Of a DNA stretch of 64,000 nt, positions 9,600 through 22,148 are shown one piece after another. Below the pieces are notes generated by a model. The model did not search any database, was not told the origin of the DNA, and saw nothing but the letters and a program-made list of their open reading frames with translations. Each line of letters starts with the position of its first letter. The stretch's first letter is position 1. This DNA comes from Chloroflexota bacterium. Its GTDB lineage: Bacteria; Chloroflexota; Anaerolineae; Anaerolineales; UBA11579. A program made the translations under genes and the position numbers. Where the stretch lies: assembly GCA_016191875.1 (NCBI GenBank), contig JACPVG010000004.1, positions 1,832 to 65,831 on the forward strand, written 5' to 3'.

Positions 9600-10166
9600 T
9601 CAGATGTACCGCTTCACCCGCCTGCAATAGTCCAGGTATTCCTGGCCGTAGTGCTGCTTCAGATAATCTTCTTCCCGCAAGACCTGGCGGTGGAACAGCC
9701 ACACCGCGCCGGCGAGGTACACAAGGAGGATCCAGTTCGGGAAGATGAGGAACTGGCCCAGGAGGACAAGAGCGAAGGCCACGTAGATGGGGTTGCGGCT
9801 GAACGCAAAGACGCCGGTTGTAATAAGTTTGTCGGGATGCTCGGTGTCGATGCCCACGCGAAAACTCTGCCCGAACGAAACCAGGCTCCACAGAAGCAGC
9901 GACAGCCCCGCCAGGCAGAACAGCACGCCGGCCCAGGCGACGCCCTCGGAATCGAAGAACTGTTGGGCGCTGACGGTGGGCAGGCCGAAGGCATGGGCGA
10001 AGATCAGGTAGAACAGGAAGAGGGCGAACGGCGGAATCAGGAAGTCGGTCTTGTCCAGTTTGCCGAAGTGCAGGGCGTCCACGCCTTTCCTTCTCAGCAA
10101 GAACACGCGGGTAATGACCATCCCCATCAGGAGAACGATAGTGAGGGCGGCAAGGGTTTTGGGCAT
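9600..10166 (-). CDS. ICMT/PEMT-family membrane methyltransferase
   Basis: TTGVFAFSRNPIYVAF and REEDYLKQHYGQEYLDY motifs. The start lies 4 nt after the kinase stop. Confidence 0.7.
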   Translation of the reverse strand: MPKTLAALTIVLLMGMVITRVFLLRRKGVDALHFGKLDKTDFLIPPFALFLFYLIFAHAFGLPTVSAQQFFDSEGVAWAGVLFCLAGLSLLLWSLVSFGQSFRVGIDTEHPDKLITTGVFAFSRNPIYVAFALVLLGQFLIFPNWILLVYLAGAVWLFHRQVLREEDYLKQHYGQEYLDYCRRVKRYI

Positions 10167-10170
10167 GTTG

Positions 10171-12126
10171 TTATCCCAGCGCGGCAACAAACTCGGTTGC
10201 AGAGTCAAACCGGTCGGCGCGTTCCTTGGCCATGGCGCGCTGGATGGCGCGAGCGGCGGCTGCGGGGCAATCCGGGGCGTGGTCGCGGGCATTCGGCGGC
10301 GGCTGGGTGAGATGGGCCATCAGCAACGCCCCGGCATGGCCGGGCTTGAACGGCAGTTCACCGATGAGCATCTGATAAGTCATCACGCCCAGCGCGTAGA
10401 TATCGGCGCGGGCGTCAATATCCGCCGCGGCGCGGATTTGCTCAGGGGCCACGTAGTCCAGCGTGCCGAGGAAACCGGAGCGCGTCATGCTCGTGAGGCC
10501 GTCCAGAATCTTGGCAATCCCGAAGTCCATCAGCACCGGGCGCATCTGGGCCGGGCGGTCATCCAGCATGATGTTGGAGGGCTTGATGTCGCGGTGGATG
10601 ATGCCGCGGCTGTGCGCCAGGTCCAGCGCCGCGGCAATGGGCTGCAGGATGGACAATGCATCGGCGAGCGGCAGGCGGCCCACCCGCCGCAGGTGTTCGG
10701 CCAGGTCGTGGCCGGGGATGTATTCCATCAGGATGAAAGGCTGGCCATTGTGCTCGCCGGTTTCGTGGATGCGGACGATGTGGGGGTGCTGGAGGGCCAT
10801 CACGGTGTCGGCTTCACGCCGGAAGCGGCCGCGGAAAGCCGGGTCATCGGCGGCGGCGCGCGGCAGCACTTTGAGCGCCAGGGGTTCGCTGCTGCCGGGG
10901 CGGACCGCGCGGTACACCTCCGCCATGCCGCCGCGGCCGATGAGTTGAAGGTCGCGAAACTCGCCGAAGGCGGTTTGCCCGGCCGCGGGTTCCGGGCGCG
11001 GCGGCGCGGGCGTGCGCTGGTAGTCAATCTCGATGCCGTAGAAGCGCCGGTCCACAAAGCGCTGGATGTTGCGGCGCAGGGGTTGGAAGGCCGCGCCAAA
11101 CACGCCTGCCGAAAGCACCCCGGCCATCAGCATGCGGTTGTCGTTCATCTGCAATACCTGTGTGATGAACAGCAGGATGCCGCCAAAGGTGGCGGCCAGC
11201 AGCAGGGTGAGGGCGGCGTACACACTGCCGCGCTGGATGACGAGGTCAATGTTCCACAGTTTGTAACGCAGGATGGAAAATGTCAGGCTGACGGCCAGCA
11301 GCAGGCCGGAGAGGTAGAACGCGGGTATGAAAAACATCCTGAAGTTCAATTCCGGCAGGCCGGGTTCAATGGTGGCGAGGACCACGCGCACGATGGCGAC
11401 CATGAGTCCGGTAAAGGCGACGCTGACCAGCACCCAGCGGATTTGCTGGCGTTCCTGCAACCCGGAATGTTTGCGGTAGCGGTCCAGCAGCGAACCAAGC
11501 ATGACAAAGATCATTGAAATGCCGACCGCGTTGGAAGTCTGCACCGGCCAGCTCCAGAAATCCAGCGGTGAGCCGGGGAAGAAATGGGCGATGAAGGTGA
11601 GCGCCAGCCAGAGGCCCGCACCCCACTTCGCCCACGGCTGGAGGATGCGCCCCGTTGGAAATGCCAGCCACACCACCACCAGCGACTGCCCGACCCAGCT
11701 CATCAGGTTTTCCAGCCATTCCAGCCCCGGGAACGCGTACAGGAATGAGCCGAGGATTCCGGAGTCCAGCGCCGTGATGCCCAGGGTGACCAGCATGCTG
11801 GCGAATATCACTTCATAGGCGTTGTGGCGCCGCTGCCAGAACACAAATGCCCCGGCGATGATGAGCGGCAGGATTTCGATGGTGATGCCGATGGGTAGGG
11901 TGATGGCATTGAAGCGGTTGGTGAGGCCGTAGGTGTTGAAGGCTTCTTCCGTGGCCTGACAGTAGGCGTTTTCGCCGCAAGGCGTACTCCAGCCCACATA
12001 CAGGCCGGCGGCGGCGCCCACCAGCACGAAGAGCGAGGCGGCAAACAAAAAAACCCACCCGATTTGCAGGGCGCGCAAAAGGAGTGGGTAGGTTGCAGGC
12101 TGTGATTTATCCGTGGTTGACGGCAT
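10171..12126 (-). CDS. Hanks-type Ser/Thr protein kinase with an N-terminal ~10-TM sensor-like module
   Basis: C-terminal kinase domain (GRGGMAEVY, ALKVL, HRDIKPSNIML, DFGIAK, APE). The N-terminal polytopic region ends in LRYKLWNIDLVIQR...PLRRNIQRFVDRRFYG. An alternative TTG start lies at 12132. Confidence 0.85.
   Translation of the reverse strand: MPSTTDKSQPATYPLLLRALQIGWVFLFAASLFVLVGAAAGLYVGWSTPCGENAYCQATEEAFNTYGLTNRFNAITLPIGITIEILPLIIAGAFVFWQRRHNAYEVIFASMLVTLGITALDSGILGSFLYAFPGLEWLENLMSWVGQSLVVVWLAFPTGRILQPWAKWGAGLWLALTFIAHFFPGSPLDFWSWPVQTSNAVGISMIFVMLGSLLDRYRKHSGLQERQQIRWVLVSVAFTGLMVAIVRVVLATIEPGLPELNFRMFFIPAFYLSGLLLAVSLTFSILRYKLWNIDLVIQRGSVYAALTLLLAATFGGILLFITQVLQMNDNRMLMAGVLSAGVFGAAFQPLRRNIQRFVDRRFYGIEIDYQRTPAPPRPEPAAGQTAFGEFRDLQLIGRGGMAEVYRAVRPGSSEPLALKVLPRAAADDPAFRGRFRREADTVMALQHPHIVRIHETGEHNGQPFILMEYIPGHDLAEHLRRVGRLPLADALSILQPIAAALDLAHSRGIIHRDIKPSNIMLDDRPAQMRPVLMDFGIAKILDGLTSMTRSGFLGTLDYVAPEQIRAAADIDARADIYALGVMTYQMLIGELPFKPGHAGALLMAHLTQPPPNARDHAPDCPAAAARAIQRAMAKERADRFDSATEFVAALG
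10176..10259. repeat. 84-bp direct repeat, copy A (3' end of the kinase gene)
   Basis: 82/84 identical to 16288-16371, same orientation. Confidence 0.9.
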
Positions 12127-12151
12127 GCCCAATTTTACATGATTTGCCGGG

Positions 12152-12358
12152 TCACGCGGTTTCCGGCGGCACGTTCTGGTTCAGCCGGAACAGGTTATCC
12201 GGGTCGTATTTTGCTTTGATGGCCGTCAACCGTTCCCAATGCGCCGGCGGGTAGGCATCCCGCACTCGGGCCGGGCCTTCGTCGTTGATAAAGTTCACGT
12301 AGGCGCTGGCATCGCCCTGGTCCAACGCCGCGGCAAAGTCTTTGATCCATGCCGCCCT
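12152..12358 (-). pseudogene. C-terminal (BBE-type) fragment of an FAD-linked oxidase
   Basis: The minus-strand frame reads AAWIKDFAAALDQGDASAYVNFINDEGPARVRDAYPPAHWERLTAIKAKYDPDNLFRLNQNVPPETA*. This frame is closed by a stop just upstream (~12381). Confidence 0.6.
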
Positions 12359-12359
12359 T

Positions 12360-12482
12360 GTCGGTGTGGATGCTCAACAACAGGGAGCCATCACCGGCTT
12401 TGACTCCGGCGCTGAGGCCGCCCTGGGCGGGATTGTGATACACCTCGTTCGACTGACACTTGGGACAGGTTCCGCTGCGCAT
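12360..12482 (-). pseudogene. 5' fragment of a zinc-ribbon ORF running out of frame into the oxidase fragment
   Basis: MRSGTCPKCQSNEVYHNPAQGG... has one CxxC only and no second metal-binding pair. Track ORF 12195..12599 is the resulting chimera. Confidence 0.35.
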
Positions 12483-12652
12483 GAATTCTCTCCGATTGGG
12501 GGCCCGGCCAGCTGGCTGGTGGGGGGATACAAGGCCGCGAATTGCTGCAACCCAGCGCGGCTCTCGCGAACATGCGGCATACTTCACAAACTTGCCCATG
12601 CCGTTTTCTAATCACTCTGCCGTATAATGAATCTTATTAAGAGAAACGTCAG

Positions 12653-15600
12653 ATGCTTGCTGAACTGAATCCCGGTGACATCATCAATGAACGCTATCGC
12701 CTCGATGTGCTGATAGGCCGCGGCGGAATGGGGGTGGTTTACCGCGGCCACGACATTCTGTTGGAGCGTGAAATCGCTCTGAAGCTGATGGCATACACCA
12801 GTATGGGGGATGACGTTCGACAACGCATGCTGCGGGAAGCGCAGCTCGCCGCCCAACTCACACACCCGAATATTGTCGCCGTCCACGATGCCGGCCAGGT
12901 GAACGGAACGCCATACATCGTCATGGAACTGGTGGAAGGTCACACCCTCAGGCAGTTTAAAGGCGAGTCGCTGGACCAGGTCATCGCGGTAGCCGAGCAA
13001 ATCTGTCTTGCACTGTCCCATGCCCACCAACATGGCGTGGTGCATCGCGACCTCAAGCCGGAGAACATCATCATCGGCTCCAACGGCAACGCCAAATTGA
13101 TGGACTTTGGCCTGGCCCATTTGCATGCCAGTAACCTGACCACCACCGGCGTCATGCTCGGCACCGTCAACTACATGGCCCCCGAGCAAATTCGCGGCGA
13201 TAAGCTCGACCCGCGCACGGACCTCTATGCGCTGGGCGTGATGCTGTATGAAATGTTGACGGGTTCCGTGCCCTTTGAGGCCGATACAGCGCTTGCCGTT
13301 ATCACTCAGCATCTCTATGCGCCGCCCGTGCCGGTCTGTGCCCGGAATGCTCAAATTCCCGCCATGTTGGATGGGCTGATCAGCCAGTTGTTAAGCAAAG
13401 AGCCGGATGAGCGCCCCAACTCAGCCGAAGTGGTGCGTGCTGCGTTGCTGGCTTCGATTTCCGCCCCCTCGCAAGAGCAACCCGCGGACGTGCCAGCCCT
13501 GGAACGCATCGCCCGCGGTCGGTTGATTGGCCGCCGGGAGGAAGTGCAGCAGGTTCGCGCCCATCTGCGTCAGGCAATAGGTAGCAAAGGCAGCCTGGTA
13601 CTGATCAGCGGCGAGCCGGGCATTGGCAAGTCCAGGCTGGCACAGGAAGTGATGGCGGAAGCGGACGCAAGCGGCGGGTACGTACTCAGGGCGTTGTGCT
13701 TTGAAGAAGGCGGCGGCCCCTATGATGTCTTCGCCCAACTTCTGCGCAAAGTCCTCCTGGAGGATAAGGCCCTCCCGGAACTGCCCGAGTTCGTCCTAAG
13801 CGACCTGCTCACCATCGCCCCGGACCTGCAACCTGCTTTTCCAAACCACCTGCCCCAGCCGGTTGGAGACAGCCAGTTTCAACAGCAGCGACTTTTGCAA
13901 AGCGTGAATACTTTTTTTCAAAAACTTGCTGCCCAACGACCGCTGGTGGTTGTCATCGAAGACCTGCACTGGGCCGATGCAAGTACCCTGATTCAAATTG
14001 GGCACCTGGCGCGCCATCTTGTCCACTGGCCGCTGTTGCTCTTAGCGACCTATCGTGAGGTGGAACTAACGTACAACCCGGCGTTCCAACGTCTGCTCGC
14101 TGGGTTTAACCGCGAACGAGTAGGGACGCGCATAAAAATCGCGCGACTTGGTCTCGATGAAACCCGAACCCTGCTGGCAAGCATGTTTGCCGAGGAAATC
14201 ACCGATGATTTTCTGGAAGGCATCTATAAGGAGACCGAGGGCAATCCTTTCTTTATAGAAGAGATTTGCAAAGCGCTTCTGGAGAGCGGCCGGCTTTACT
14301 ACCAGGAAGGGCAGTGGCACCGTCCGAGCATCGCAGAGCTGCGTATCCCTCAGGGAATCCGGGTCGCCATAGAAGAACGCGTGGGCAAACTTCCCGACGA
14401 ATGCCAGGAAGTGCTCAACATGGCAGCGATATTCGGCCAACGGTTTTACTATGACGCCCTGCAATTGGCTTCCGGAATGGAAGATGAGCAGGTATTGCTG
14501 GCGCTGGAACAGGCGGAAGACGCGCAGTTGATTCATGGTTCCAGCGATAATTACGGCGTCTCGTTCACGTTTGCACATGCGCTCATCCCTTCTTCACTGG
14601 CGGAAAATCTGAATATCCTTCGCCGCCAGCGAATGCATGCTCGCGCCGCCGAGGCGCTTCTCCAGGTGCGTCCTGATGACTTCGAGACATTGGCTCACCA
14701 CTTCTCATCCGCCGGAAATCTGGACCGGGCCATTGAATACTATCGGATGGCCGCAGCGCGAAGCCGGAGCGTATACGCTTATGCCCTGGCTCTTGAACAG
14801 ATTCAGACCGTCATTGACCTGGTCAAAATGGATTCACAGTCGGCCATCCGGGTGGATGTTTACGAAGAGCTGGCCGATGTGCAAACCATCTATGGGCAGG
14901 CCGATTTAGCTATCGAGAACTACCGCCATGCCCTTGATTTGCTGGCCAGCGCGAAAGACCCCGACAGGTTGACAGTTATTCGCCTTCATCGCAAGTTGAT
15001 CGACTCGTTGACGCGTGTGCTGTGGTTTGAGGATTTGGCCCGCGTTCAGCATCTGGTCGATCGCAGCCTGCGCGAGGCCCCTCCGCTGGCGGAGGAAGTG
15101 CCACCCCACGCTGAAGTTGTGTTTCTCTATCAGGCACTGGGGTCAACCATCGGGCGAGACCCGGTGCTTGCAACGAAATCAATTGAAGAATATTCCCAAA
15201 AAGCCCTGGAGATTGCCCAACAGCTTGGCGAGCCAAGAGTTAAATCGGCCGCTCTTGGCGCCATGGCAGTCATGCAGTTGGTTATGGGAAATCCACAGTT
15301 AAGCCGCGGCTATTCCGAACAACGCCTGGCGCTGATTGAAGAACATTTGCCGGATGATCTGGTTGAGCGAATTGATGTCTTGCGACTGCTCACGCAAAGC
15401 CTGATGCAGATGGGCGAATTTCCGCGCGCCATGGAACTGTCGCGCGAGGCGTACCAACTTGCCAGCCGTGTTCATCATGTCAACCTGATGTTGTTTTCCC
15501 TCGTCCGCCAATCGGTATGCGAGTTTTCAATGGACCGTTGGGACAACGTGCTTGCTTTGGAGAAAAACATCATATCGCTTGAACGCGAGTACGAAACTAT

Positions 15601-15766
15601 CTTTGAAGGTCAGCGCGCTTCCTGTTTCCACATCGGACTGATGGCCGCAATTCATATATTTCGAGGAGACGCGGAAAAAGCTGGTGAGCTGACCAGACGG
15701 TCCCGTGAAATCATGATGAGCATCAATGGTCCTGAGGAACATTGGGATCGCTCCAGCCGGTATTGA
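12653..15766 (+). CDS. Ser/Thr kinase - AAA/STAND ATPase - TPR multidomain regulator (PknK-like architecture), ending at an in-frame TGA
   Basis: N-terminal kinase (GRGGMGVVY, HRDLKPENII, DFGLA). Walker A GEPGIGKSRL, followed by long helical-repeat/TPR-like sequence. Confidence 0.85.
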   Translation: MLAELNPGDIINERYRLDVLIGRGGMGVVYRGHDILLEREIALKLMAYTSMGDDVRQRMLREAQLAAQLTHPNIVAVHDAGQVNGTPYIVMELVEGHTLRQFKGESLDQVIAVAEQICLALSHAHQHGVVHRDLKPENIIIGSNGNAKLMDFGLAHLHASNLTTTGVMLGTVNYMAPEQIRGDKLDPRTDLYALGVMLYEMLTGSVPFEADTALAVITQHLYAPPVPVCARNAQIPAMLDGLISQLLSKEPDERPNSAEVVRAALLASISAPSQEQPADVPALERIARGRLIGRREEVQQVRAHLRQAIGSKGSLVLISGEPGIGKSRLAQEVMAEADASGGYVLRALCFEEGGGPYDVFAQLLRKVLLEDKALPELPEFVLSDLLTIAPDLQPAFPNHLPQPVGDSQFQQQRLLQSVNTFFQKLAAQRPLVVVIEDLHWADASTLIQIGHLARHLVHWPLLLLATYREVELTYNPAFQRLLAGFNRERVGTRIKIARLGLDETRTLLASMFAEEITDDFLEGIYKETEGNPFFIEEICKALLESGRLYYQEGQWHRPSIAELRIPQGIRVAIEERVGKLPDECQEVLNMAAIFGQRFYYDALQLASGMEDEQVLLALEQAEDAQLIHGSSDNYGVSFTFAHALIPSSLAENLNILRRQRMHARAAEALLQVRPDDFETLAHHFSSAGNLDRAIEYYRMAAARSRSVYAYALALEQIQTVIDLVKMDSQSAIRVDVYEELADVQTIYGQADLAIENYRHALDLLASAKDPDRLTVIRLHRKLIDSLTRVLWFEDLARVQHLVDRSLREAPPLAEEVPPHAEVVFLYQALGSTIGRDPVLATKSIEEYSQKALEIAQQLGEPRVKSAALGAMAVMQLVMGNPQLSRGYSEQRLALIEEHLPDDLVERIDVLRLLTQSLMQMGEFPRAMELSREAYQLASRVHHVNLMLFSLVRQSVCEFSMDRWDNVLALEKNIISLEREYETIFEGQRASCFHIGLMAAIHIFRGDAEKAGELTRRSREIMMSINGPEEHWDRSSRY

Positions 15767-16249
15767 ATATGCCAGCCGCTTAAAGCACAGGGCGAGTTCG
15801 CTCTGGTCAAGGAACACATCGTGAAAGCCCTGCAAGTGCCCTCTTCCCTATTCTTTGAATTGGAGCTCATCGGCCTGCTGGTGGATGCGGCGGCTGAAGC
15901 CCAGAACAGGGAGGTATTACAGGAATATCTCGCCAGAGTTGAGGCGCTGGCGCAGGGCTTGAACAATCATCTATATTTGGGAATCGCCCATCGAGGTTTT
16001 GCGGCACTACTATCCCTGGATGGAAATTTTGCCGCCGCTCTGGAGCGCCTTGACCAGGCCATTGAAAGTTTTACTTTTCTTGGCCTTGCTTACCAGCTTG
16101 GCAGGAGCCATGCCCAGCGAGCAAGTGTGCTGGCGATGCTTGGCCGGAACGAGGATGCCCAACAGGCTCTTCATCAGTCGCTTGATTATTACAATCGTCT
16201 TGGAGCAACCCTCGCCATCGAGAAGACCAGACACATGCTCGACATGTGA
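15767..16249 (+). CDS. TPR-like C-terminal segment in the same frame as 12653..15766 (a continuation, or a separate GTG-started ORF at 15821)
   Basis: (15821-12653) is divisible by 3. There is no stop between 15767 and 16249. The helical-repeat sequence continues the upstream domain. Confidence 0.5.
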   Translation: MCQPLKAQGEFALVKEHIVKALQVPSSLFFELELIGLLVDAAAEAQNREVLQEYLARVEALAQGLNNHLYLGIAHRGFAALLSLDGNFAAALERLDQAIESFTFLGLAYQLGRSHAQRASVLAMLGRNEDAQQALHQSLDYYNRLGATLAIEKTRHMLDM

Positions 16250-16279
16250 AGACTTGCACGGCTGGGTGCTGAGTCTGGA

Positions 16280-16555
16280 TTAATTCTCCAGCGCGGCAAC
16301 AAACTCGGTTGCAGAGTCAAACCGGTCGGCGCGTTCTTTGGCCATGGCGCGCTGGATGGCGCGGGCGGCGGTGAGGCCGGTTTCGCGCGCCACGTCTGCC
16401 GCGCCCGCAGGGCGCAGGATGAGGGCCGGGCGGCGGTCGATATCGCCCAGGAAAACGGTGCGGGTGGTCTCATAATCGACGTGGTCGGGGGTGAGGATGC
16501 GGCCGGTGAAGGCGGGGCGCAGGGCGGCGAGCGCATCGGACAGGGTGGTAGACAT
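16280..16555 (-). pseudogene. Chimeric remnant: N-terminal ~61 aa of an FAD-linked oxidase fused to the duplicated kinase C-terminal tail
   Basis: MSTTLSDALAALRPAFTGRILTPDHVDYETTRTVFLGDIDRRPALILRPAGAADVARETGLT (FAD_binding-type N-terminus) is followed by AARAIQRAMAKERADRFDSATEFVAAL, identical to the end of the 10171..12126 kinase. Confidence 0.6.
16288..16371. repeat. 84-bp direct repeat, copy B
   Basis: 82/84 identical to 10176-10259. Confidence 0.9.
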
Positions 16556-16702
16556 TAAGGACTCTCCTTGGTGTGAATTAGAACAAATGTGCGATAAGAG
16601 TATACTGCGGTTGGGGAAATCTGGGTAGGATTTGGGGGAATTGGGCAATGGAATTTTTCACGCAGTTTCGTGATACACTTAATTACGTGAAAGGGCACCC
16701 GT

Positions 16703-16945
16703 ATGAAGACTCAAAACATTACGCTGGCGATTGACCGAGAATTGCTCAAGAAGGCGAAGCTCTTGGCGGTGCGCAAGGATACCTCGCTCTCCGGCCTGCT
16801 GGCGCGGACGCTGGAAGCGATTGTGACCCAGGAAGAGGGCTTTGAAAGCGCCCGCCAGCGCAGCCTGGTGCAACTGGCGCGCGGGCTGAACCTGCAAACC
16901 AAAGGGCGCATTCGCTGGGGGCGCGAAAGTCTGCATGAGCGTTGA
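16703..16945 (+). CDS. vapB: VapB-like antitoxin (ribbon-helix-helix type)
   Basis: 80 aa. N-terminal ITLAIDRELLKKAKLLAVRKDTSLSGLL. Overlaps the downstream PIN gene by 11 nt. Confidence 0.6.
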   Translation: MKTQNITLAIDRELLKKAKLLAVRKDTSLSGLLARTLEAIVTQEEGFESARQRSLVQLARGLNLQTKGRIRWGRESLHER

Positions 16946-17369
16946 AACCATTCAGTTTGAATTTGTGGACACCAATATCCTCGTCTATGCGTTTGATAAC
17001 AGCGCAGGAAAGAAACGGGATGCAGCGCGGGCGTTGGTGGAGACTTTATGGCAGGAGCAGCGCGGCGCGCTGAGCGTGCAGGTTTTGCAGGAGTTCTATG
17101 TGACGCTGACCCGCAAACTGCCCCAACCGCTGCGCCCGGAGCAGGCCCGGCCGCTGATCGCTGACTTTGCTACCTGGAAGATCTACAGCCCAACGGCCGA
17201 AGATGTGCTGGCGGCGATTGACGTGCAGCAGGCGCATGGCGTCTCATTCTGGGATGCGATGATTTTGCAGGGCGCGCAGGCGTTGGGCTGCACGCAGGTG
17301 TGGTCAGAAGACCTGGCGCATGGGGAGATGTACGCCGGGGTGCAGGTGCTCAACCCGTTTGCGGGTTAG
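16935..17369 (+). CDS. vapC: PIN-domain ribonuclease toxin VapC
   Basis: FVDTNILVYA (first acidic residue), VLQEFY and FWDAMIL motifs. 144 aa. Confidence 0.8.
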   Translation: MSVETIQFEFVDTNILVYAFDNSAGKKRDAARALVETLWQEQRGALSVQVLQEFYVTLTRKLPQPLRPEQARPLIADFATWKIYSPTAEDVLAAIDVQQAHGVSFWDAMILQGAQALGCTQVWSEDLAHGEMYAGVQVLNPFAG

Positions 17370-17379
17370 AATCGCACCC

Positions 17380-18807
17380 ATGTCCGACTTGTTTGACTAT
17401 TCCATGAAGCAAAGCCTGAAGACCGAAGCGCCGCTCGCCGCGCGCATGCGGCCGCGCAACCTGGGCGAGTACATCGGCCAGGAGGAGATTCTGGGCGAGG
17501 GGCGGCTGCTGCGCCGCGCCATCGAGGCCGACCGGCTGTTCTCGTCCATCATCCTCTGGGGGCCGCCGGGGACAGGCAAAACCACGCTGGCCATGGTCAT
17601 CGCCGCGCACACCGAAAGCCACTTCGAGACCCTCTCTGCCGTGCTGGACGGCGTGGCGCGCCTGCGGGATGTGGTGAACGATGCCCTCGAACGCCGCAAA
17701 CTGTACACCAAGCGCACCATCCTGTTCGTGGACGAGGTGCATCGCTGGAACAAGGCCCAGCAGGACGCGCTGCTGCCGCACGTGGAGAACGGCACGGTCA
17801 CGCTCATCGGCGCGACGACCGAGAACCCCTACTTCGAAGTCAACAGCGCGCTGGTGTCGCGCTCGCGCGTCTTCCAACTGCGCCCCCTGCTGGATGCCGA
17901 CGTGGCCAAAATCCTCGCACAGGCCCTGGCGGATAAAGAGCGCGGGCTGGGTGGGTATACCGTGAACCTGCACAAGGATGCGGAGGAGCACCTGATTCAC
18001 GTGGCGGGCGGCGATGCCCGCAACGCGCTGAACGCCCTGGAACTGGCGGTGCTGTCCACCCCGCCGGACAAAGACGGCGTGGTGCAGGTGACGCTGACGG
18101 TGGCGCAGGAGAGCATCCAACGGCGGGCGGTGCTGTACGACAAGGACGGCGACGCCCACTACGACACGATTTCGGCGTTCATCAAGAGCGTGCGCGGCTC
18201 CGACCCGGATGCGGCCCTGTACTGGCTGGCGAAGATGCTGTACGCAGGGGAAGACCCGCGCTTCATCCTGCGCCGCCTCATCATCCTCGCCGGCGAGGAT
18301 ATCGGCCTCGGCGACCCGCTCGGCATGGTGGTGGCTTCGGCCGCCGCGCAGGCCTTTGACTATGTCGGCCTGCCGGAGGGCATCTACCCCCTGGTGCATG
18401 CCACCCTGTACCTGAGCACCGCGCCGAAGTCCAACACCGCCAGCGCCTATTTCAAGGCCTTCGAGAAAATCGAGAAAGACGGCTTGGTCGAAGTGCCCGA
18501 CCATTTGAAGGACGGCAACCGCGACGCCCGCGCCCTCGGCCACGGCGAAGGCTACGACTACCCGCACGCCTTCGAGGGCCACTACACCCCCCAGCAGTAC
18601 CTGCCCGACGAACTGCGCGGCACGTATTTCTATTTGCCGAGCGATCAGGGCTACGAGCAGCAAGTGACCGAGCGCCTAGAACGCTGGCGACGCGCCCAGC
18701 GGGCGGCCCTGGGCATCACGGAGACGGCCGAAATCCCCGACTTGAGCGAAGATGAGATCAAAGACATCAAGCAGCGCCACAAGCCGACCGGCGGCAAGGG
18801 CGGGTAG
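17380..18807 (+). CDS. rarA: Replication-associated recombination protein A (MgsA/RarA AAA+ ATPase)
   Basis: LAARMRPRNLGEYIGQEEILG, GPPGTGKTTLA, LFVDEVHRWNKAQQDALLP, GATTENPYFE. Confidence 0.9.
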   Translation: MSDLFDYSMKQSLKTEAPLAARMRPRNLGEYIGQEEILGEGRLLRRAIEADRLFSSIILWGPPGTGKTTLAMVIAAHTESHFETLSAVLDGVARLRDVVNDALERRKLYTKRTILFVDEVHRWNKAQQDALLPHVENGTVTLIGATTENPYFEVNSALVSRSRVFQLRPLLDADVAKILAQALADKERGLGGYTVNLHKDAEEHLIHVAGGDARNALNALELAVLSTPPDKDGVVQVTLTVAQESIQRRAVLYDKDGDAHYDTISAFIKSVRGSDPDAALYWLAKMLYAGEDPRFILRRLIILAGEDIGLGDPLGMVVASAAAQAFDYVGLPEGIYPLVHATLYLSTAPKSNTASAYFKAFEKIEKDGLVEVPDHLKDGNRDARALGHGEGYDYPHAFEGHYTPQQYLPDELRGTYFYLPSDQGYEQQVTERLERWRRAQRAALGITETAEIPDLSEDEIKDIKQRHKPTGGKGG

Positions 18808-18874
18808 AGATAGGAGTCGCACGAAAAAAGCCCAACCAGGGGTTCTAAGGGATACTTCGACTTGAAAATAATCC

Positions 18875-18928
18875 TGTCATTCCGAGCAAACCGACGCTGC
18901 GAAGCAGCGTTCGGTCAAGCGAGGAATC
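18875..18928. repeat. Solo copy of the 34-nt hairpin-repeat family with an extra hairpin inserted in its loop
   Basis: TGTCATTCCGAGC [AAACCGACGCTGCGAAGCAGCGTTCGGTC] AAGCGAGGAATC. Confidence 0.7.
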
Positions 18929-18993
18929 CCGTTCTACACCCTTCTTTCAGACCGGCCCACTGGTAATCGACCCCGACTCGCGACCCTTCGCTG

Positions 18994-19060
18994 GCAAATG
19001 CCGGAGGCATTTGCTTAGAGTTGGGGAAAGCCCAACTCCATTCGCTCAGGGTGACAAGCC
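18994..19060. repeat. Two-hairpin repeat element, copy 1
   Basis: GCAAATGCC-GGA-GGCATTTGC, then TAGAGTTGGG-GAAAG-CCCAACTCCAT. The homologous copy is at 40362-40410. Confidence 0.7.
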
Positions 19061-19104
19061 CTCAAATATCGGCATCCTTGCAGCAGAGCATGATGGAATA
19101 GCCT

Positions 19105-19536
19105 ATGGATTTTGAAGAATACAAACGCCGTTACTACGCCGACCCGCAACCCGCGCCGCGCTTCGCGTTTGAGGGCATCGCCGGCGTGGCGATCTATATA
19201 GAAGACTACGTTGCCGCCGTCCGCTTCTATACCGAAGTGCTCGGCCCACCTGCGTATATAGAAGGAGACAACACGCACGGCTGGCGCATCGGCGATGCCT
19301 GGTTGACCGTGTTCCCGGCCAGGGCCGGCGCGCCCGCCAACGTGGATGTCACCTTGATGATGCACTCGCCCGCCGCGGCGGAGGCGTTGCAGGCCGCTTT
19401 CCTCGCCGCCGGTGCCACCGGCCAGCCGCCCAGCAACCAGCTGATGTATGAACCCTTGCGCTATTGCGGCGTCACCGACCCCTTCGGCACCCAGATTCTC
19501 ATCGTAGCGCGTCTGGGGAATCAGTCAACGAGTTGA
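19105..19536 (+). CDS. VOC (glyoxalase/bleomycin-resistance) family protein
   Basis: 143 aa with paired beta-alpha-beta-beta-beta style sequence (GVAIYIEDYVAAVRFYTEVLG ... DPFGTQILIV). Confidence 0.7.
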   Translation: MDFEEYKRRYYADPQPAPRFAFEGIAGVAIYIEDYVAAVRFYTEVLGPPAYIEGDNTHGWRIGDAWLTVFPARAGAPANVDVTLMMHSPAAAEALQAAFLAAGATGQPPSNQLMYEPLRYCGVTDPFGTQILIVARLGNQSTS

Positions 19537-19590
19537 CGAGGCATGCGGCAACGCGGAATACTGACTTCAATAGCGCCGCTTCGACACCCA

Positions 19591-19622
19591 CAGACCACAA
19601 GACCACCCGACTTCAAGACTTC
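19591..19622. repeat. Phased 8-nt word tract (CAGACCAC AAGACCAC CCGACTTC AAGACTTC)
   Basis: Exact 8-nt register. Overlaps the stop codon of the ABM gene. Confidence 0.6.
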
Positions 19623-19951
19623 TCTTGCTTGTGCCCGTAGGCGCGCTCCACCCGCGCCACGCGGATTTCGTAATGCGAATACCATTCCTCGCGCCCGCGC
19701 TGCTGGGCTTCGCGGTGCTCGGCCACTTTCTTCCAGGCCCGCGCCGCCTCATCATCCACCCAGTAGGAGACCGTGATTTCCAACCCATCCGCCTGCTCCG
19801 CGGATTCATGTCCAAGGTAACCGGGCTGCTGCATCGCCAGCGCCACCATCGCGTCAGCGGTTGCGTCGTAACCCTGGTATTTCTTCGAACGGCGGGCGGT
19901 GAAAATCACCGCCGTGTAGGGCGGCTCCGGCAACTTCGCGATTCCATCCAT
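19613..19951 (-). CDS. Antibiotic-biosynthesis-monooxygenase (ABM) domain protein
   Basis: YTAVIFTARRS...GYLGHES...ITVSYWVDDEAARAWK pattern. AGGAG RBS. Confidence 0.75.
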   Translation of the reverse strand: MDGIAKLPEPPYTAVIFTARRSKKYQGYDATADAMVALAMQQPGYLGHESAEQADGLEITVSYWVDDEAARAWKKVAEHREAQQRGREEWYSHYEIRVARVERAYGHKQEKS

Positions 19952-20080
19952 TGAAATCTCCTGTTCTCGCCATCTTTCTCTACGCTTGACAGTATTCTAT
20001 TGCCTTTCTTTGCGCTCTTGGCAAGGCTATTCTTATCGCCCACTTTGCGTAAGATGTTTTCTTCCCCCCACTGATACAAT

Positions 20081-20120
20081 CCGACCACAAGACCACAAGA
20101 CCATTAGACTCCGGGACTCC
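20081..20120. repeat. Phased 8-nt word tract (CCGACCAC AAGACCAC AAGACCAT TAGACTCC GGGACTCC) abutting the start codon at 20121
   Basis: Five words in exact 8-nt register. Same word family as 19591-19622. Confidence 0.6.
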
Positions 20121-20741
20121 ATGACAACGCTCTACCTCGTTCGCCACGGTGAAAACGACTACGTCAAAAAGGGCAAACTGGCCGGCCGCCTGCCCGGCAT
20201 CCACCTCAACGACAAAGGCCGCGCCCAGGCCGCCGCGCTGGCCGCCTGGTTCAAGGAGAAACCGGTGAAGGCGGTGTACGCCAGCCCGCTGGAGCGCACC
20301 CTCGAGACCGCCGCGCCCATCGCCGCCGCGCTCGGCCTGAAGATCATCGAACGCCCCGGCCTGCTGGAGATGGAGATCGGCGACTGGACCGACAAGAGCC
20401 TCAAGCGCCTCGCCCTGCGCAAGGACTGGCGCATCGTCCAGCGCCACCCGTCGCGCTTCCAGTTCCCCAACGGCGAAACCTTCGCCGGCGCGCAGGCGCG
20501 CATCGCCGCAGAAATCGAATCGCTGGCCGCGCGTTACAAGAACCCCAAACATGCCATCGTCTGCGTCTTCCACAGCGACCCGATCAAGCTGGCGCTCTCG
20601 CACTTCCTCGGCCAGCCGCTCGACCTCTTCCAGCGCATCATCGTCGCCCCCGGTTCGGTCAGCGCCATCCATCTGGGGCCGGGCGGCGGGGCAGCGGTCT
20701 CGGCCGTGAACTTCGTCCCCCCGCCGGTCCCCGACGCGTGA
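20121..20741 (+). CDS. Histidine phosphatase superfamily protein (MSMEG_4193-type putative phosphomutase)
   Basis: LYLVRHGEN catalytic motif, followed by SPLERTLETA. Confidence 0.8.
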   Translation: MTTLYLVRHGENDYVKKGKLAGRLPGIHLNDKGRAQAAALAAWFKEKPVKAVYASPLERTLETAAPIAAALGLKIIERPGLLEMEIGDWTDKSLKRLALRKDWRIVQRHPSRFQFPNGETFAGAQARIAAEIESLAARYKNPKHAIVCVFHSDPIKLALSHFLGQPLDLFQRIIVAPGSVSAIHLGPGGGAAVSAVNFVPPPVPDA

Positions 20742-20763
20742 GCCTGTACCGCGCATCCTCCCT

Positions 20764-20791
20764 ATCACGTCTCACGTATCACGCATCCCAC
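20764..20791. repeat. Phased 7-nt word tract (TATCACG TCTCACG TATCACG CATCCCA)
   Basis: Lies in the spacer between the phosphomutase and DUF3090 genes. Confidence 0.5.
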
Positions 20792-20836
20792 AGGGGCCTT
20801 CCAGCCCGCCAGACCCCGAATGGTATACTCCCCCTG

Positions 20837-21394
20837 ATGGAGCAGCCGGTCGAGATTACCTTCAAGCCCGTCACGCATCTGACGGCCGACGCCATCGGCC
20901 CGCCCGGCCAGCGCGTCTTCTACCTCCAGGGCTGGAAAGGTGACCGCTCCGCCACCCTCATCATCGAGAAGTTCCAACTGCAGCAACTCGCCATCGGCGT
21001 CGAGCAGTTCCTGGCAGAGTTGAGCCAGCGCCTGCCCATGCTGGCGGGCGCCAGCAACGACTACCAAGAAGAGCGCATGCGCATCCACCCGCCGGTGGAG
21101 CCGCTCTTCCGCGTGGCCGAGTTCGGCCTGGCCTACGACCCGGAAGAAGACCTGATGGGCCTGATCGCCCGTGAGACCCCCAGCGCCACCCTGCTCGACC
21201 CCGAAGCCCAGCCCGAGACCGAAGAGCCCCCCGGCGGCGTCGTGCGCTTCTGGGGCACCCGCCACCAACTGCGCGCCCTCGTCCATTGGGGCATCGAACT
21301 CACCCAGCGCGGCCGCCCGCTGTGCGAACAGTGCGGCCAGCCCATGGACCCGGAAGGCCATTTCTGCGCCCGCAAGAACGGCCACCGGCGCTGA
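20837..21394 (+). CDS. DUF3090 family protein
   Basis: TADAIGPPGQRVFYLQG, FGLAYDPEEDL and a C-terminal CEQCGQPMDPEGHFCARKNGH zinc-knuckle-like tail. Confidence 0.7.
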   Translation: MEQPVEITFKPVTHLTADAIGPPGQRVFYLQGWKGDRSATLIIEKFQLQQLAIGVEQFLAELSQRLPMLAGASNDYQEERMRIHPPVEPLFRVAEFGLAYDPEEDLMGLIARETPSATLLDPEAQPETEEPPGGVVRFWGTRHQLRALVHWGIELTQRGRPLCEQCGQPMDPEGHFCARKNGHRR

Positions 21395-21410
21395 CCCACG
21401 GACTGCCGCC

Positions 21411-22148
21411 ATGCAGCCCGACGACCCCATCCTCCACCCCGAAACCCTGGCCGCCCTGCAAACCGGCGAGTTCACGGTGCAGGGTCAGTTCATGTGGGGC
21501 TCCAACCACACCTTCCTGGCCGATGTGGCCTGCGCGGGCCGCGCGCTCAAAGCCGTTTACAAACCCACCCTGGGCGAGCGGCCGCTGTGGGATTTCCCGG
21601 TCGAATCGCTGGCGGGGCGCGAGGTGGCCGCCTACCTGGTGAGCGAGGCGGGCGGCTGGCACATGGTGCCGCCCACCGTCTTCCGCGCCGACGGCCCGGC
21701 CGGGCGCGGGTCGCTCCAGCTCTACGTCGAGCATGACCCCGAACTGCACTACTTCAACTTCACGCCCGAGCAGCGCGCCCGCCTCATGCCGGTGGCGCTG
21801 TTCGACGCCGTAGTCAACAATACCGACCGCAAGGGCGGCCACGTGCTGGTGGGGCCGGACGAACGCTTCTGGCTCATTGACCACGGTATCTGCTTCCACG
21901 TCCAGCCCAAATTGCGCACCGTCATCTGGGACTTCGCCGGGCAGGCCATCCCGGAGGACGAGATCGAGCGCCTGAAAGCCCTGCGCACCCAGCTGGCCGG
22001 CGAGGCGAGCCTGCGCCGGGACCTGGAACCGCACCTCTCTGAAGCCGAGGTTGGCGCCACTCTGGCGCGCATCGACGCCTTGCTTGCCGCCCGCCGCTTC
22101 CCGCGCCCCACCAACGACCGCTACTCCTACCCCTGGCCGCCCGTATGA
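21411..22148 (+). CDS. SCO1664 family protein (PI3/PI4-kinase-like fold)
   Basis: GSNHTFLA, AVYKPTLGERPLWDFP, NNTDRKGGHVL, WLIDHGICFH. Confidence 0.7.
   Translation: MQPDDPILHPETLAALQTGEFTVQGQFMWGSNHTFLADVACAGRALKAVYKPTLGERPLWDFPVESLAGREVAAYLVSEAGGWHMVPPTVFRADGPAGRGSLQLYVEHDPELHYFNFTPEQRARLMPVALFDAVVNNTDRKGGHVLVGPDERFWLIDHGICFHVQPKLRTVIWDFAGQAIPEDEIERLKALRTQLAGEASLRRDLEPHLSEAEVGATLARIDALLAARRFPRPTNDRYSYPWPPV

Follow-up and report, generated by a model that had tools for sequence, protein, structure and literature searches.

A broken FAD oxidase gene beside two kinase genes in an uncultured Anaerolineae bacterium: a probable scar of local copying and loss

The template-switching model (FoSTeS / MMBIR) is based mainly on eukaryotes and on stress-induced amplification in E. 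coli. Homology-facilitated illegitimate recombination in natural transformation was reportedly described by de Vries and Wackernagel, and its defining trait is said to be a one-sided homologous anchor that is continuous with the recipient copy. In a chemostat survey of Salmonella, the junctions of spontaneous deletions and duplications typically had microhomologies of 8-27 bp (PMC3411829), and a bacterial tandem duplication by illegitimate recombination has been documented with a 9-bp microhomology (PMC11111574). For gene-order changes in animal mitochondrial genomes, tandem duplication and random loss (TDRL) is the standard model (PMC5745709, PMC4223735). Here I analysed a window, the whole 64,000-nucleotide stretch at positions 1,832 to 65,831 of contig JACPVG010000004.1 (GCA_016191875.1), in which an oxidase gene lies in pieces around a two-kinase locus. 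The locus is probably the scar of a local illegitimate rearrangement, copying followed by loss, of an ancestral run of four genes. It would then be a clean natural case, from an uncultured member of the Anaerolineae, of a gene order changed by local copy-and-loss with collateral gene death. It is an ordinary though well-resolved illegitimate-recombination scar and points to no new mechanism.

What is left of the N-terminus of the FAD-linked (BBE-type) oxidase, oxN, occupies positions 16372 to 16555 of the minus strand (61 codons). It has 87% nucleotide identity over 151 nt with the 5′ end of an intact 471-aa FAD_binding_4+BBE oxidase gene in the related contig L168, it can also be aligned to the 457-aa oxidase of another relative, L085, and tblastn matched it to residues 16-74 of the L168 protein (E 2e-22). 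An 18-bp in-frame deletion sets it apart from the orthologs. Pfam gave no match for oxN because the remnant, which ends at residue 80 of the L168 oxidase, stops about 25 residues into the FAD_binding_4 domain (residues 56-190). Judged by these alignments, oxN is a genuine oxidase N-terminus. The C-terminal (BBE) remnant, oxC, lies at 12152 to 12364 on the same strand (about 68 codons and a stop). The translation of 12152-12358 matched Pfam BBE (PF08031; E 3.2e-12; 46.7 bits, the cutoff being 20.6), and the nucleotide identity of oxC with oxidase 3′ ends is 91% for the relative L004 and 85% for L168. The first-pass annotation of this DNA had noted the absence of the oxidase centre, and only its size, given as about 330 codons, needs adjustment: residues 81-404 of the L168 oxidase, or 324 codons, are missing. 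The intact oxidase that it proposed to seek in relatives does exist at the same position, as a 457-aa ortholog between vapB and the kinase gene in L085 and a 471-aa ortholog beside rarA in L168.

Next to oxN lies a piece of a kinase gene. The membrane Ser/Thr kinase gene itself (10171 to 12126, minus strand; Pfam Pkinase) is intact and encodes 651 aa; its orthologs have 650-653 aa and 65-66% identity. Its last 84 coding bp, with the final codon excluded (K3′ copy 1, 10176-10259, minus strand), recur as a direct repeat at 16288 to 16371 (K3′ copy 2, minus strand), where a duplicate of the last 28 kinase codons is joined in frame to oxN. The two copies are identical at 82 of the 84 nucleotides, as first described, and both differences are synonymous. 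This is the sole pair in the window with three or fewer mismatches, and none of 100 shuffles gave such a pair. The copies are spaced 6112 bp apart, so that 10176-16371 comprises one unit plus 84 bp. The resulting chimeric ORF (16280-16555, minus strand) encodes 91 aa, MSTT...AADVARETGL followed by TAARAIQRAMAKERADRFDSATEFVAALEN and a stop, the last 28 residues being the C-terminus of the membrane kinase. It retains the start codon and the ribosome-binding site of the oxidase. It fell into a cluster of one, with no homolog but itself, and a Pfam search gave no match; the "hypothetical protein" HYU84_18415 annotated here is the product of a chimeric pseudogene.

The identity to the kinase stops sharply at both edges of the 84-bp copy, with oxidase sequence from 16372 and a spacer on the side of the STAND kinase gene (see below) from 16287. 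This 38-nt spacer (16250 to 16287) holds the last two codons and the stop of the fusion ORF and then intergenic sequence. It is presumed to be a leftover of the original intergenic region between the kinase and STAND genes, and no equivalent exists in L168; there, a 5′ remnant of a methyltransferase gene (PEMT) adjoins the stop codon of the STAND tail. A longer stretch of kinase homology was considered and rejected: the 28 identical residues plus chance-level matches account for a tblastn match that covers 68 aa at 53%. By its boundaries, the 84-bp copy is the remainder of a second kinase copy, cut at the oxN junction. Since it is nowhere continuous with kinase sequence, it was not a crossover substrate, and the earlier suggestion that homology to the kinase 3′ end mediated the event does not hold.

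Between the two oxidase remnants lies a Ser/Thr kinase-AAA_16(STAND)-TPR gene, hereafter STAND. The first-pass annotation treated 12653-16249 as one gene; instead, Pfam domains and homologs resolve it into a 1037-aa STAND kinase (12653 to 15766, plus strand) and a separate tail ORF of 142 aa (15821 to 16249, plus strand; Pfam TPR_12) with a GTG start and AAGGA upstream. The tail aligns to the C-terminus of homologs of 1181-1186 aa, and both ORFs are kept in L168. STAND ends with TGA at 15764-15766, and the nearest homologs all terminate at residue 1037. By these comparisons, the gene is a split one, and this TGA is where it naturally ends. A pseudogene broken by an in-frame TGA was rejected, with the stop conserved in L168, the natural end in every near homolog, and a dN/dS between the window and L168 of 0.11 for STAND; for the tail, this ratio is 0.16. 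Continuing purifying selection on STAND is apparent. Selenocysteine insertion or readthrough at TGA 15764 was also rejected, for no stable RNA structure lies just downstream: the fold of 15758-15850 (-22.2 kcal/mol) has a z of 0.44 against shuffles, and no Rfam match was found.

Is this block a recent arrival? In composition, which the first-pass annotation proposed to compare, STAND is atypical, with a GC3 of 0.64 versus 0.74-0.88. The history is another matter: dS between the window and L168 is 0.41 for STAND, 0.53 for rarA, and 0.48 for oxC, with a range of 0.41-0.49 for STAND and the adjoining zinc-ribbon remnant and of 0.48-0.67 for the flanking genes. Because its dS is near the flank values and its dN/dS is 0.11, STAND was probably inherited together with its flanks. 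Thus, STAND is rearranged relative to its neighbours, as had been proposed, but its acquisition was not recent. The low GC3 and the absence of STAND from L085 and from a further relative, L087, point to an older acquisition. Beyond STAND, a divergent intergenic region (12483 to 12652) has 130 of 170 positions identical with L168, and over its last 21 nt it shows homology to L087, just where that contig leads up to its zinc-ribbon gene (ZnR). It is followed by ZnR′ (12349 to 12482, minus strand), a 5′ remnant of 44 codons of a 90/91-aa zinc-ribbon gene that then runs out of frame into oxC. The truncation and the start at 12482 had been seen before; the earlier length of 41 codons becomes 44 by homology to the full-length genes of L087 and L168, which extends from 12482 to about 12349. 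A 134-aa ORF at 12195-12599 is an artefact of reading the ZnR remnant into the oxidase remnant. The oxidase and ZnR are pseudogene remnants here; both functions are lost, while both kinases are retained.

Two remnants are therefore all that is left of the oxidase, and the two junctions hold four gene fragments, as first reported and as the homologies of oxN, the K3′ copy, ZnR′, and oxC now establish. At the ZnR′-oxC junction (zone 12349-12364), ZnR codon 44 meets oxidase codon ~404. The two parents share GGCGGC, with 8 of 9 in-register matches just 5′ of the crossover, and a 1-nt offset causes the frameshift. At the oxN-K3′ junction, the parents share about 4 nt in register and an offset string, CCGCTCGC; the microhomology here is weak. 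The ancestral bases at both oxidase junctions were inferred from relatives that are 12-15% diverged. Such joins are illegitimate, any microhomology in them being short and imperfect. Nothing marks the block as a mobile element: no transposase or integrase Pfam domain and no bracketing inverted-repeat pair was found in it, and no tRNA or Rfam match in the window. Two further contigs are 100% identical to parts of the window: L001, from Logan, matches 10579-16317 and covers the ZnR′-oxC junction, and L002, from NCBI (GCA_016183455.1), matches 14254-17241 and covers the entire 84-bp copy with both its junctions. Thus, two of the three junctions are reproduced by other assemblies, and the third, between the kinase and PEMT genes, occurs in the window's own assembly only. 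Exact-protein look-ups with the membrane kinase from its TTG start, the 188-aa and 230-aa forms of PEMT, and the Gfo/Idh gene returned no second assembly.

On the far side of the membrane kinase lies PEMT, a PEMT/ICMT-family methyltransferase gene (9600 to 10166, minus strand; Pfam PEMT), whose start was set by alignment to L004 and whose ATG is 4 nt past the kinase stop. The kinase-PEMT contact is a synteny breakpoint relative to L085 and L168, and no AI-2E transporter gene is present within the window. In L085 and L087, the oxidase and kinase genes adjoin in the same collinear order, and the alignment of oxC and the kinase gene to both contigs is unbroken through the intergenic spacer. Re-import of the window's kinase from a distant lineage was rejected, as oxC, which is contiguous with it, has the same dS against L168 as rarA. 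On the side of oxN, vapB (DUF6364) and vapC (PIN) lie divergent from the oxidase (16703 to 17369, plus strand; Pfam). The order rarA-vapC-vapB-oxidase is also found in L085, with amino acid identities of 78% for vapB and 73% for vapC, and there vapBC sits beside an intact oxidase without STAND. From this synteny, vapBC are evidently ancestral neighbours outside the rearranged block, and not the possible acquisitions that they had been taken for.

The relatives show where the fragments came from. L085 has rarA-vapC-vapB, the oxidase (457 aa), the kinase, and AI-2E, in this order; L087 has the oxidase, the kinase, ZnR (91 aa), and AI-2E; and L168/L167 have rarA, the oxidase (471 aa), and then, farther on, the tail and STAND in reverse, ZnR (90 aa), an esterase gene, and AI-2E. 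L168/L167 are 88.4% identical in nucleotides to window 12349-16249. Since L087 has oxidase-kinase-ZnR and L168 has STAND-ZnR, STAND still lies between its native flanks in the window, with a kinase 3′ end (the 84-bp piece) on one side and a ZnR 5′ end on the other, both oriented as in the ancestor. The window order, oxN, K3′-STAND-ZnR′, oxC-kinase, permutes oxidase-kinase-STAND-ZnR cyclically, the period being 6112 bp and the overlap 84 bp. The insert, which had been read as recently acquired or rearranged, is accordingly not foreign to the lineage. Tracing the fragments to their native neighbours, for which three or four related contigs suffice, overturns the reading of a foreign insertion by homology.

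The intact, contiguous order oxidase-kinase-STAND-ZnR was not found in any recovered locus, and no intermediate with two full copies occurred among the loci recovered, in which the close relatives sampled are L004 and L168 only. L168, the sole close relative with STAND, lacks the kinase and has a PEMT 5′ remnant in its place. PEMT touches the kinase in the window, lies 139 nt from the oxidase in L004, and in L168 lies, as a remnant, between the oxidase (85 nt away) and STAND. The oxidase-PEMT spacers of L004 and L168 are homologous neither to each other nor to window sequence. The same interface has thus been rearranged differently in three related genomes, and no parsimonious single ancestral order was found that also accounts for the PEMT positions in L004 and L168. 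The window arrangement was absent from every relative examined. A metagenome scan with the oxidase C-terminus gave 80 loci, none above 62% identity being syntenic, and a genome scan with a kinase alignment, in a collection without the window's genome, gave only L088 (the same as L085) and L089 (the same as L087) as syntenic relatives.

These fragments, homologies, and adjacencies, and the purifying selection that still acts on STAND, are shown by the sequences compared; how many events there were, in which order, and whether they took place in cis or through DNA from a sister strain is inferred. The ancestor, read in the sense of the oxidase, would have had vapBC, the oxidase, the membrane kinase, STAND and its tail on the opposite strand, and ZnR. 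A 6.1-kb segment from oxidase codon ~404 to ZnR codon 44 would have been copied, either by tandem duplication, with ZnR′-oxC as the join point, or by a replicative template switch. The oxN-K3′ junction may stem from a deletion in the upstream copy that began at oxidase codon ~81 and reached to within 84 bp of the kinase stop. PEMT and its neighbours may have taken the place of STAND-ZnR and all that followed in the downstream copy, which would give the kinase-PEMT junction. The outcome would be the order oxN, K3′-STAND-ZnR′, oxC-kinase, PEMT, with one working kinase, one working STAND, pseudogene remnants of the oxidase and ZnR, and the 91-aa chimeric ORF as a by-product. Between the K3′ copies, 2 of about 22 synonymous sites have changed, while the dS between the window and L168 is 0.4-0.5; therefore, the duplication probably followed the split of the two lineages. 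In L168, the oxidase and ZnR are still intact. The model in cis requires at least two or three events. It offers no explanation for the three different contacts of PEMT.

A one-step import of kinase 3′-STAND-ZnR 5′ from a sister strain fits the two oxidase junctions equally well, and of what the first-pass annotation proposed it is the nearest form that survives. Here, a linear kinase-STAND-ZnR fragment, with one end at ZnR codon 44 and the other 84 bp short of the kinase stop, would have been integrated into the oxidase of an oxidase-kinase-PEMT recipient by two illegitimate joins, replacing 324 codons. A single event in the recipient would then account for both oxidase junctions, the 2/84 difference of the K3′ copies could be divergence between strains, and the atypical GC3 of STAND agrees with such an origin. 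PEMT beside the oxidase locus is common in the clade (L004 and L168), so the kinase-PEMT contact could predate the insertion. However, the dS ranges of block and flanks given above bear no sign of a separate history for the block, no homologous anchor was used, so that homology-facilitated recombination is not what took place, and the lack of ZnR and AI-2E downstream of the recipient's kinase is left unexplained. Double illegitimate integration of a fragment of about 4 kb is rare. I consider such an import rather unlikely, and local copying followed by loss remains the preferred reading.

Could the arrangement be an assembly artefact or a population mix at the 84-bp repeat? The sample would then hold a chromosome with oxN-K3′-PEMT together with STAND-ZnR′-oxC-kinase on a 6112-bp circle or in a tandem array, or a mixture of forms. 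At k=31, the Logan unitigs break off precisely where the repeat has its 48-nt core: the end of L001 is at 16317, and by coordinate arithmetic L003 would start at about 16307. By itself, the k-mer graph permits either pairing (the k=31 assembly graph of SRR12113421 fits the linear and the circular one alike), and the kinase-PEMT junction has the window contig as its one witness. Against this, the window contig and L002, which were deposited separately, both join the STAND side through the variant bases of copy 2 to oxN; the distinguishing bases are 49 nt from unique flank, within one short read; and neither oxN-K3′ nor ZnR′-oxC has a repeat long enough to mislead an assembler. The oxidase stays broken even with the alternative pairing. 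An artefact or mixture is highly improbable. It is also scarcely credible that the arrangement was selected, as an amplifiable or excisable two-kinase cassette between 84-bp direct repeats or as an expressed 91-aa chimeric gene. The retained oxidase signals of the chimeric ORF, the two intact kinases, and the purifying selection on STAND would suit that idea, and a direct repeat of 84 bp (98% identity) has the length that RecA-dependent recombination needs; on the other hand, the ORF is without homologs or a Pfam match, the arrangement recurs in no relative, excision does not restore the oxidase, and the repeat is indistinguishable from a passive leftover. There is little reason to expect that the 6112-bp unit (STAND with its tail, ZnR′-oxC, and the membrane kinase) is still dynamic in the population, excised as a circle or amplified in tandem by RecA-dependent recombination between its bounding 84-bp repeats; if it were, the contig would be a snapshot of an ongoing duplication-loss cycle altering the dosage of two signalling kinases.

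Compared with the described systems, the locus shares with homology-facilitated illegitimate recombination the combination of insertion, deletion, and an illegitimate junction, with related-strain DNA a possible source; it differs in having no anchor, as the 84-bp piece is joined to kinase sequence on neither side. As in FoSTeS / MMBIR, a deletion and a nearby templated duplication occur in one locus, in direct orientation and with short microhomology at the joins, and by sequence alone this process is indistinguishable from duplication plus deletion. Like spontaneous bacterial duplications and deletions, the locus has GC-rich, short or imperfect microhomology, no mobile-element genes, and a segment of kilobase scale, but it is fixed in a natural population, later losses have been added, and oxN-K3′ has only about 4 nt in register. 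The present case is unlike TDRL in lying on a bacterial chromosome, in having boundaries inside genes, so that the bystanders oxidase and ZnR were destroyed, in having no observed two-copy intermediate, and in a last junction, that with PEMT, which is also a larger synteny break. The likeness to TDRL lies in a derived order that is a cyclic permutation, in fragments that mark the duplication join and the deletion ends, and in one working copy for each duplicated gene.

The FAD oxidase gene survives in the window as two minus-strand remnants, and every element that the first-pass annotation had listed (the repeat, the fusion, the BBE remnant, and the zinc-ribbon fragment) was found in the sequence. 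The last 84 nt of the membrane kinase gene (10171-12126) form a direct repeat with two mismatches, at 10176-10259 and 16288-16371. No second such pair was found in the window, and shuffled sequences gave matches in 0 of 100 cases. The second copy, K3′, lies in a minus-strand ORF (16280-16555, annotated as HYU84_18415) with a good ribosome-binding site and an ATG, which encodes 61 oxidase-like residues (oxN) followed in frame by TAARAIQRAMAKERADRFDSATEFVAALEN and a stop codon; the kinase itself ends in AAARAIQRAMAKERADRFDSATEFVAALG and a stop codon. The C-terminal remnant oxC is a BBE domain (12152-12358, minus strand; Pfam E 3e-12), while the fragment ZnR′ (12482 to ~12349, minus strand) is the first 44 codons of a gene for a small zinc-ribbon protein. 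The claimed loss of about 330 central codons amounts to 324 codons against intact orthologs (residues 81-404 of the L168 protein). A further 18 bp is gone from oxN (window 16372-16390, minus strand; GIALAR in L168, LGIQLA in L085) and is flanked by GCGCGC-like short repeats. It arose either by slippage, as decay of the inactivated gene, or as a component of a complex junction. Apart from it, decay is slight (oxN pN/pS ~0.4, oxC dN/dS 0.22, from few sites each).

Two clear orthologs of the membrane kinase were found (65-66% amino acid identity). In L085 (Anaerolineales MAG GCA_024710875.1), the order is rarA-vapC-vapB, an intact oxidase (457 aa), the kinase, and a reversed AI-2E transporter gene; L087 (GCA_964514335.1) has the oxidase, the kinase, a full-length ZnR (91 aa), and the reversed AI-2E gene. 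The comparison with relatives proposed earlier finds an oxidase upstream of the kinase in both, intact in L085. These orders indicate that the ZnR fragment of the window is the 5′ end of a gene natively following the kinase, and that VapBC-rarA is the native upstream flank and not a possible part of an acquired block, since vapC-vapB precedes the intact oxidase in L085. ZnR is present in L087 (2931-3292) and missing from L085 (5796-5858), the two loci being otherwise 93-95% identical. The AI-2E cluster was not found within the window.

The kinase-STAND-TPR gene (STAND) has one close relative (91% amino acid identity), in L167 and L168 of the same organism (GCA_004297445.1). L168 has rarA, a 200-aa gene, an intact oxidase (471 aa), an 85-nt spacer, a 5′ remnant of the methyltransferase gene PEMT without a start codon, the reversed tail and STAND, a full-length ZnR (90 aa), an esterase gene, a reversed AI-2E gene, and three genes common to L085; the membrane kinase is absent. 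Homology to L168 covers window 12349-16249 (88.4% nucleotide identity); one end of this interval is ZnR codon 44, and the other is precisely the STAND-tail stop codon. Window 17373-21411 is collinear with the right flank of L168, which comprises rarA and the glyoxalase-like, ABM, and His_Phos genes. The PEMT remnant of L168 (13601-13775, equal to L167 13592-13766) spans ~27 codons between the intact oxidase and the STAND-tail stop. In L168, the position of vapBC in the window and L085 is taken by the 200-aa gene (15300-15902), which encodes a membrane protein; small genes around the cluster, ZnR included, differ from relative to relative.

STAND (12653-16249, plus strand), previously read as a single gene, consists of two same-frame ORFs of 1037 aa and 142 aa (the TPR tail) parted by a TGA at 15764-15766. 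Its near homologs (42-46% identity, 1015-1052 aa) all terminate exactly at query residue 1037, as do two longer ones with N-terminal additions, while more distant homologs (1181-1186 aa) align without a break across the tail as well. L168 keeps both the TGA and the linker of 54 nt, the latter 53/54 identical against 88% overall; folding revealed no unusual RNA structure in the linker. The tail has its own start (GTG 15821) with an upstream AAGGA ribosome-binding site. The homolog ends, the conserved TGA, and this start rule out a pseudogene; STAND is a naturally split gene. Low dN/dS against L168 (STAND 0.11, tail 0.16) indicates that both parts are functional.

Is the arrangement an assembly artefact? 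The window lies within a contig of 131 kb from a Chloroflexota MAG. In the Logan assembly of SRR12113421, one contig is identical to window 10579-16317 and crosses the ZnR′-oxC junction; in a second deposited MAG (GCA_016183455.1), a 2988-bp contig identical to 14254-17241 covers the entire 84-bp copy and both its junctions. No repeats able to mislead an assembler were found at the two novel junctions, oxN-K3′ and ZnR′-oxC. The Logan k=31 unitigs break off precisely at the repeat's 48-nt core (L001 ends at window 16317; L003 starts at ~16307 by coordinate arithmetic, not alignment), so that the k=31 graph alone would also accommodate an oxN-K3′-PEMT chromosome plus a 6112-bp circle. The two longer-k assemblies, the sole deciders, both match the flank pairing of the window and favour it over the circle. 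The kinase-PEMT junction (10167-10175) was seen in the window assembly only, look-ups elsewhere giving no match.

The oxidase N-terminus, middle, and C-terminus were designated a-b-c, the kinase body and its last 84 bp d-e, the spacer, reversed STAND, intergenic sequence, and ZnR codons 1-44 f, and the rest of ZnR g. The ancestral order was probably a-b-c-d-e-f-g, which is supported piecewise: a-b-c-d-e and e-ZnR by L085 and L087, STAND-ZnR by L168 and the window, and e-f by the window itself. The window reads a, e-f, c-d-e, PEMT, and 10176-16371 equals one 6112-bp turn (c-d-e-f) plus an 84-bp overlap. This pattern is expected from a tandem duplication of c-d-e-f, in which the end of f (ZnR codon 44) would have been joined to the start of c (oxidase codon ~404); the first copy would then have lost b-c-d (joining a to e) and the second f-g (joining e to PEMT). 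Alternatively, a replicative template switch may have copied e-f into the oxidase, with loss of the original f-g and the same outcome. Under copy-and-loss, the 84 bp is the leftover of a second kinase copy. It was not a recombination substrate, as had been proposed, since it has no continuous homologous anchor.

At ZnR′-oxC, the L168 parents read CCGACAAGGGCGGCAT/CTTC (ZnR) and CCGCCAAGG-CGGCGT/GGGTCAAAGAC (oxidase), and the window reads CCGACAAGGGCGGCAT/GGATCAAAGAC (slash, crossover). The parents have GGCGGC in common and 8/9 in-register matches just 5′ of the crossover. A one-base length difference here puts the remnants in different frames and results in a spurious 134-aa ORF (12195-12599, minus strand), an artefact without a Pfam match that runs from upstream non-coding sequence through ZnR′ into oxC read out of frame. 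At oxN-K3′, the oxidase parent is ACCGGGCTG/CCGCTCGCCATCC, the kinase parent CCCGCAG/CCGCCGCTCGCGCCATCC, and the window ACCGGCCTC/ACCGCCGCCCGCGCCATCC; the in-register match is only ~4 nt, and both parents contain CCGCTCGC with an offset of a few bases. Both are illegitimate joins with short GC-rich homology and fall within what has been described for spontaneous deletions and duplications in bacteria (PMC3411829; PMC11111574). The microhomology is suggestive and not proof, because the ancestral bases had to be reconstructed from relatives that have diverged.

The dS values between the window and L168 (STAND 0.41, tail 0.39, ZnR′ 0.49, oxC 0.48, rarA 0.53, next two genes 0.64-0.67) indicate that STAND has travelled with its flanks since the split. 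The K3′ copies differ at 2 of ~22 synonymous sites, so the duplication is several-fold younger than that split, which fits the intact oxidase and ZnR of L168. GC3 is atypically low in STAND (0.64) and its tail (0.56) compared with the neighbours (0.74-0.88), and neither L085 nor L087 has either part. Horizontal acquisition of STAND at an older date is plausible. Of the earlier reading as recently acquired or rearranged, rearrangement stands, but recent acquisition does not agree with the flank-like dS.

PEMT (9600-10166) adjoins the locus in three ways in the window, L004, and L168, with unrelated spacers, so this interface has undergone different rearrangements in three related genomes. L004 has no kinase; its oxidase 3′ end, which matches the window at 91% of nucleotides, is separated from the following PEMT by 139 nt (483-621). 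Synteny of the window with L085 and L168 breaks at the kinase-PEMT junction. I sought one ancestral order fitting all three PEMT arrangements and found none. Two readings are offered: breakage recurs at this interface, where the oxidase, kinase, and STAND genes have their 3′ ends, or strains have exchanged DNA. A single import of a sister-strain kinase 3′-STAND-ZnR 5′ fragment into an oxidase-kinase-PEMT recipient would explain both oxidase junctions equally well as copy-and-loss in cis, and it is held to be rather improbable. The longest PEMT ORF (9600-10292, minus strand) overlaps the kinase 3′ end and the 84-bp repeat in another frame; its ATG at 10292 was rejected, since in the alignment with L004 the true start is ATG 10166, 4 nt past the kinase stop.

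The broken oxidase is thus confirmed, while its first interpretation is partly supported: homology mediation, recent acquisition, and VapBC in the block fall away. A mobile element was rejected, the block having no recombinase or terminal inverted repeats and the window no tRNA. Homology-facilitated illegitimate recombination was also rejected, because its defining continuous homologous anchor is missing. The locus resembles tandem duplication and random loss, best known from mitochondrial genomes (PMC5745709; PMC4223735), and bacterial short-homology illegitimate recombination (PMC3411829; PMC11111574); it is a fresh example of an already known phenomenon.
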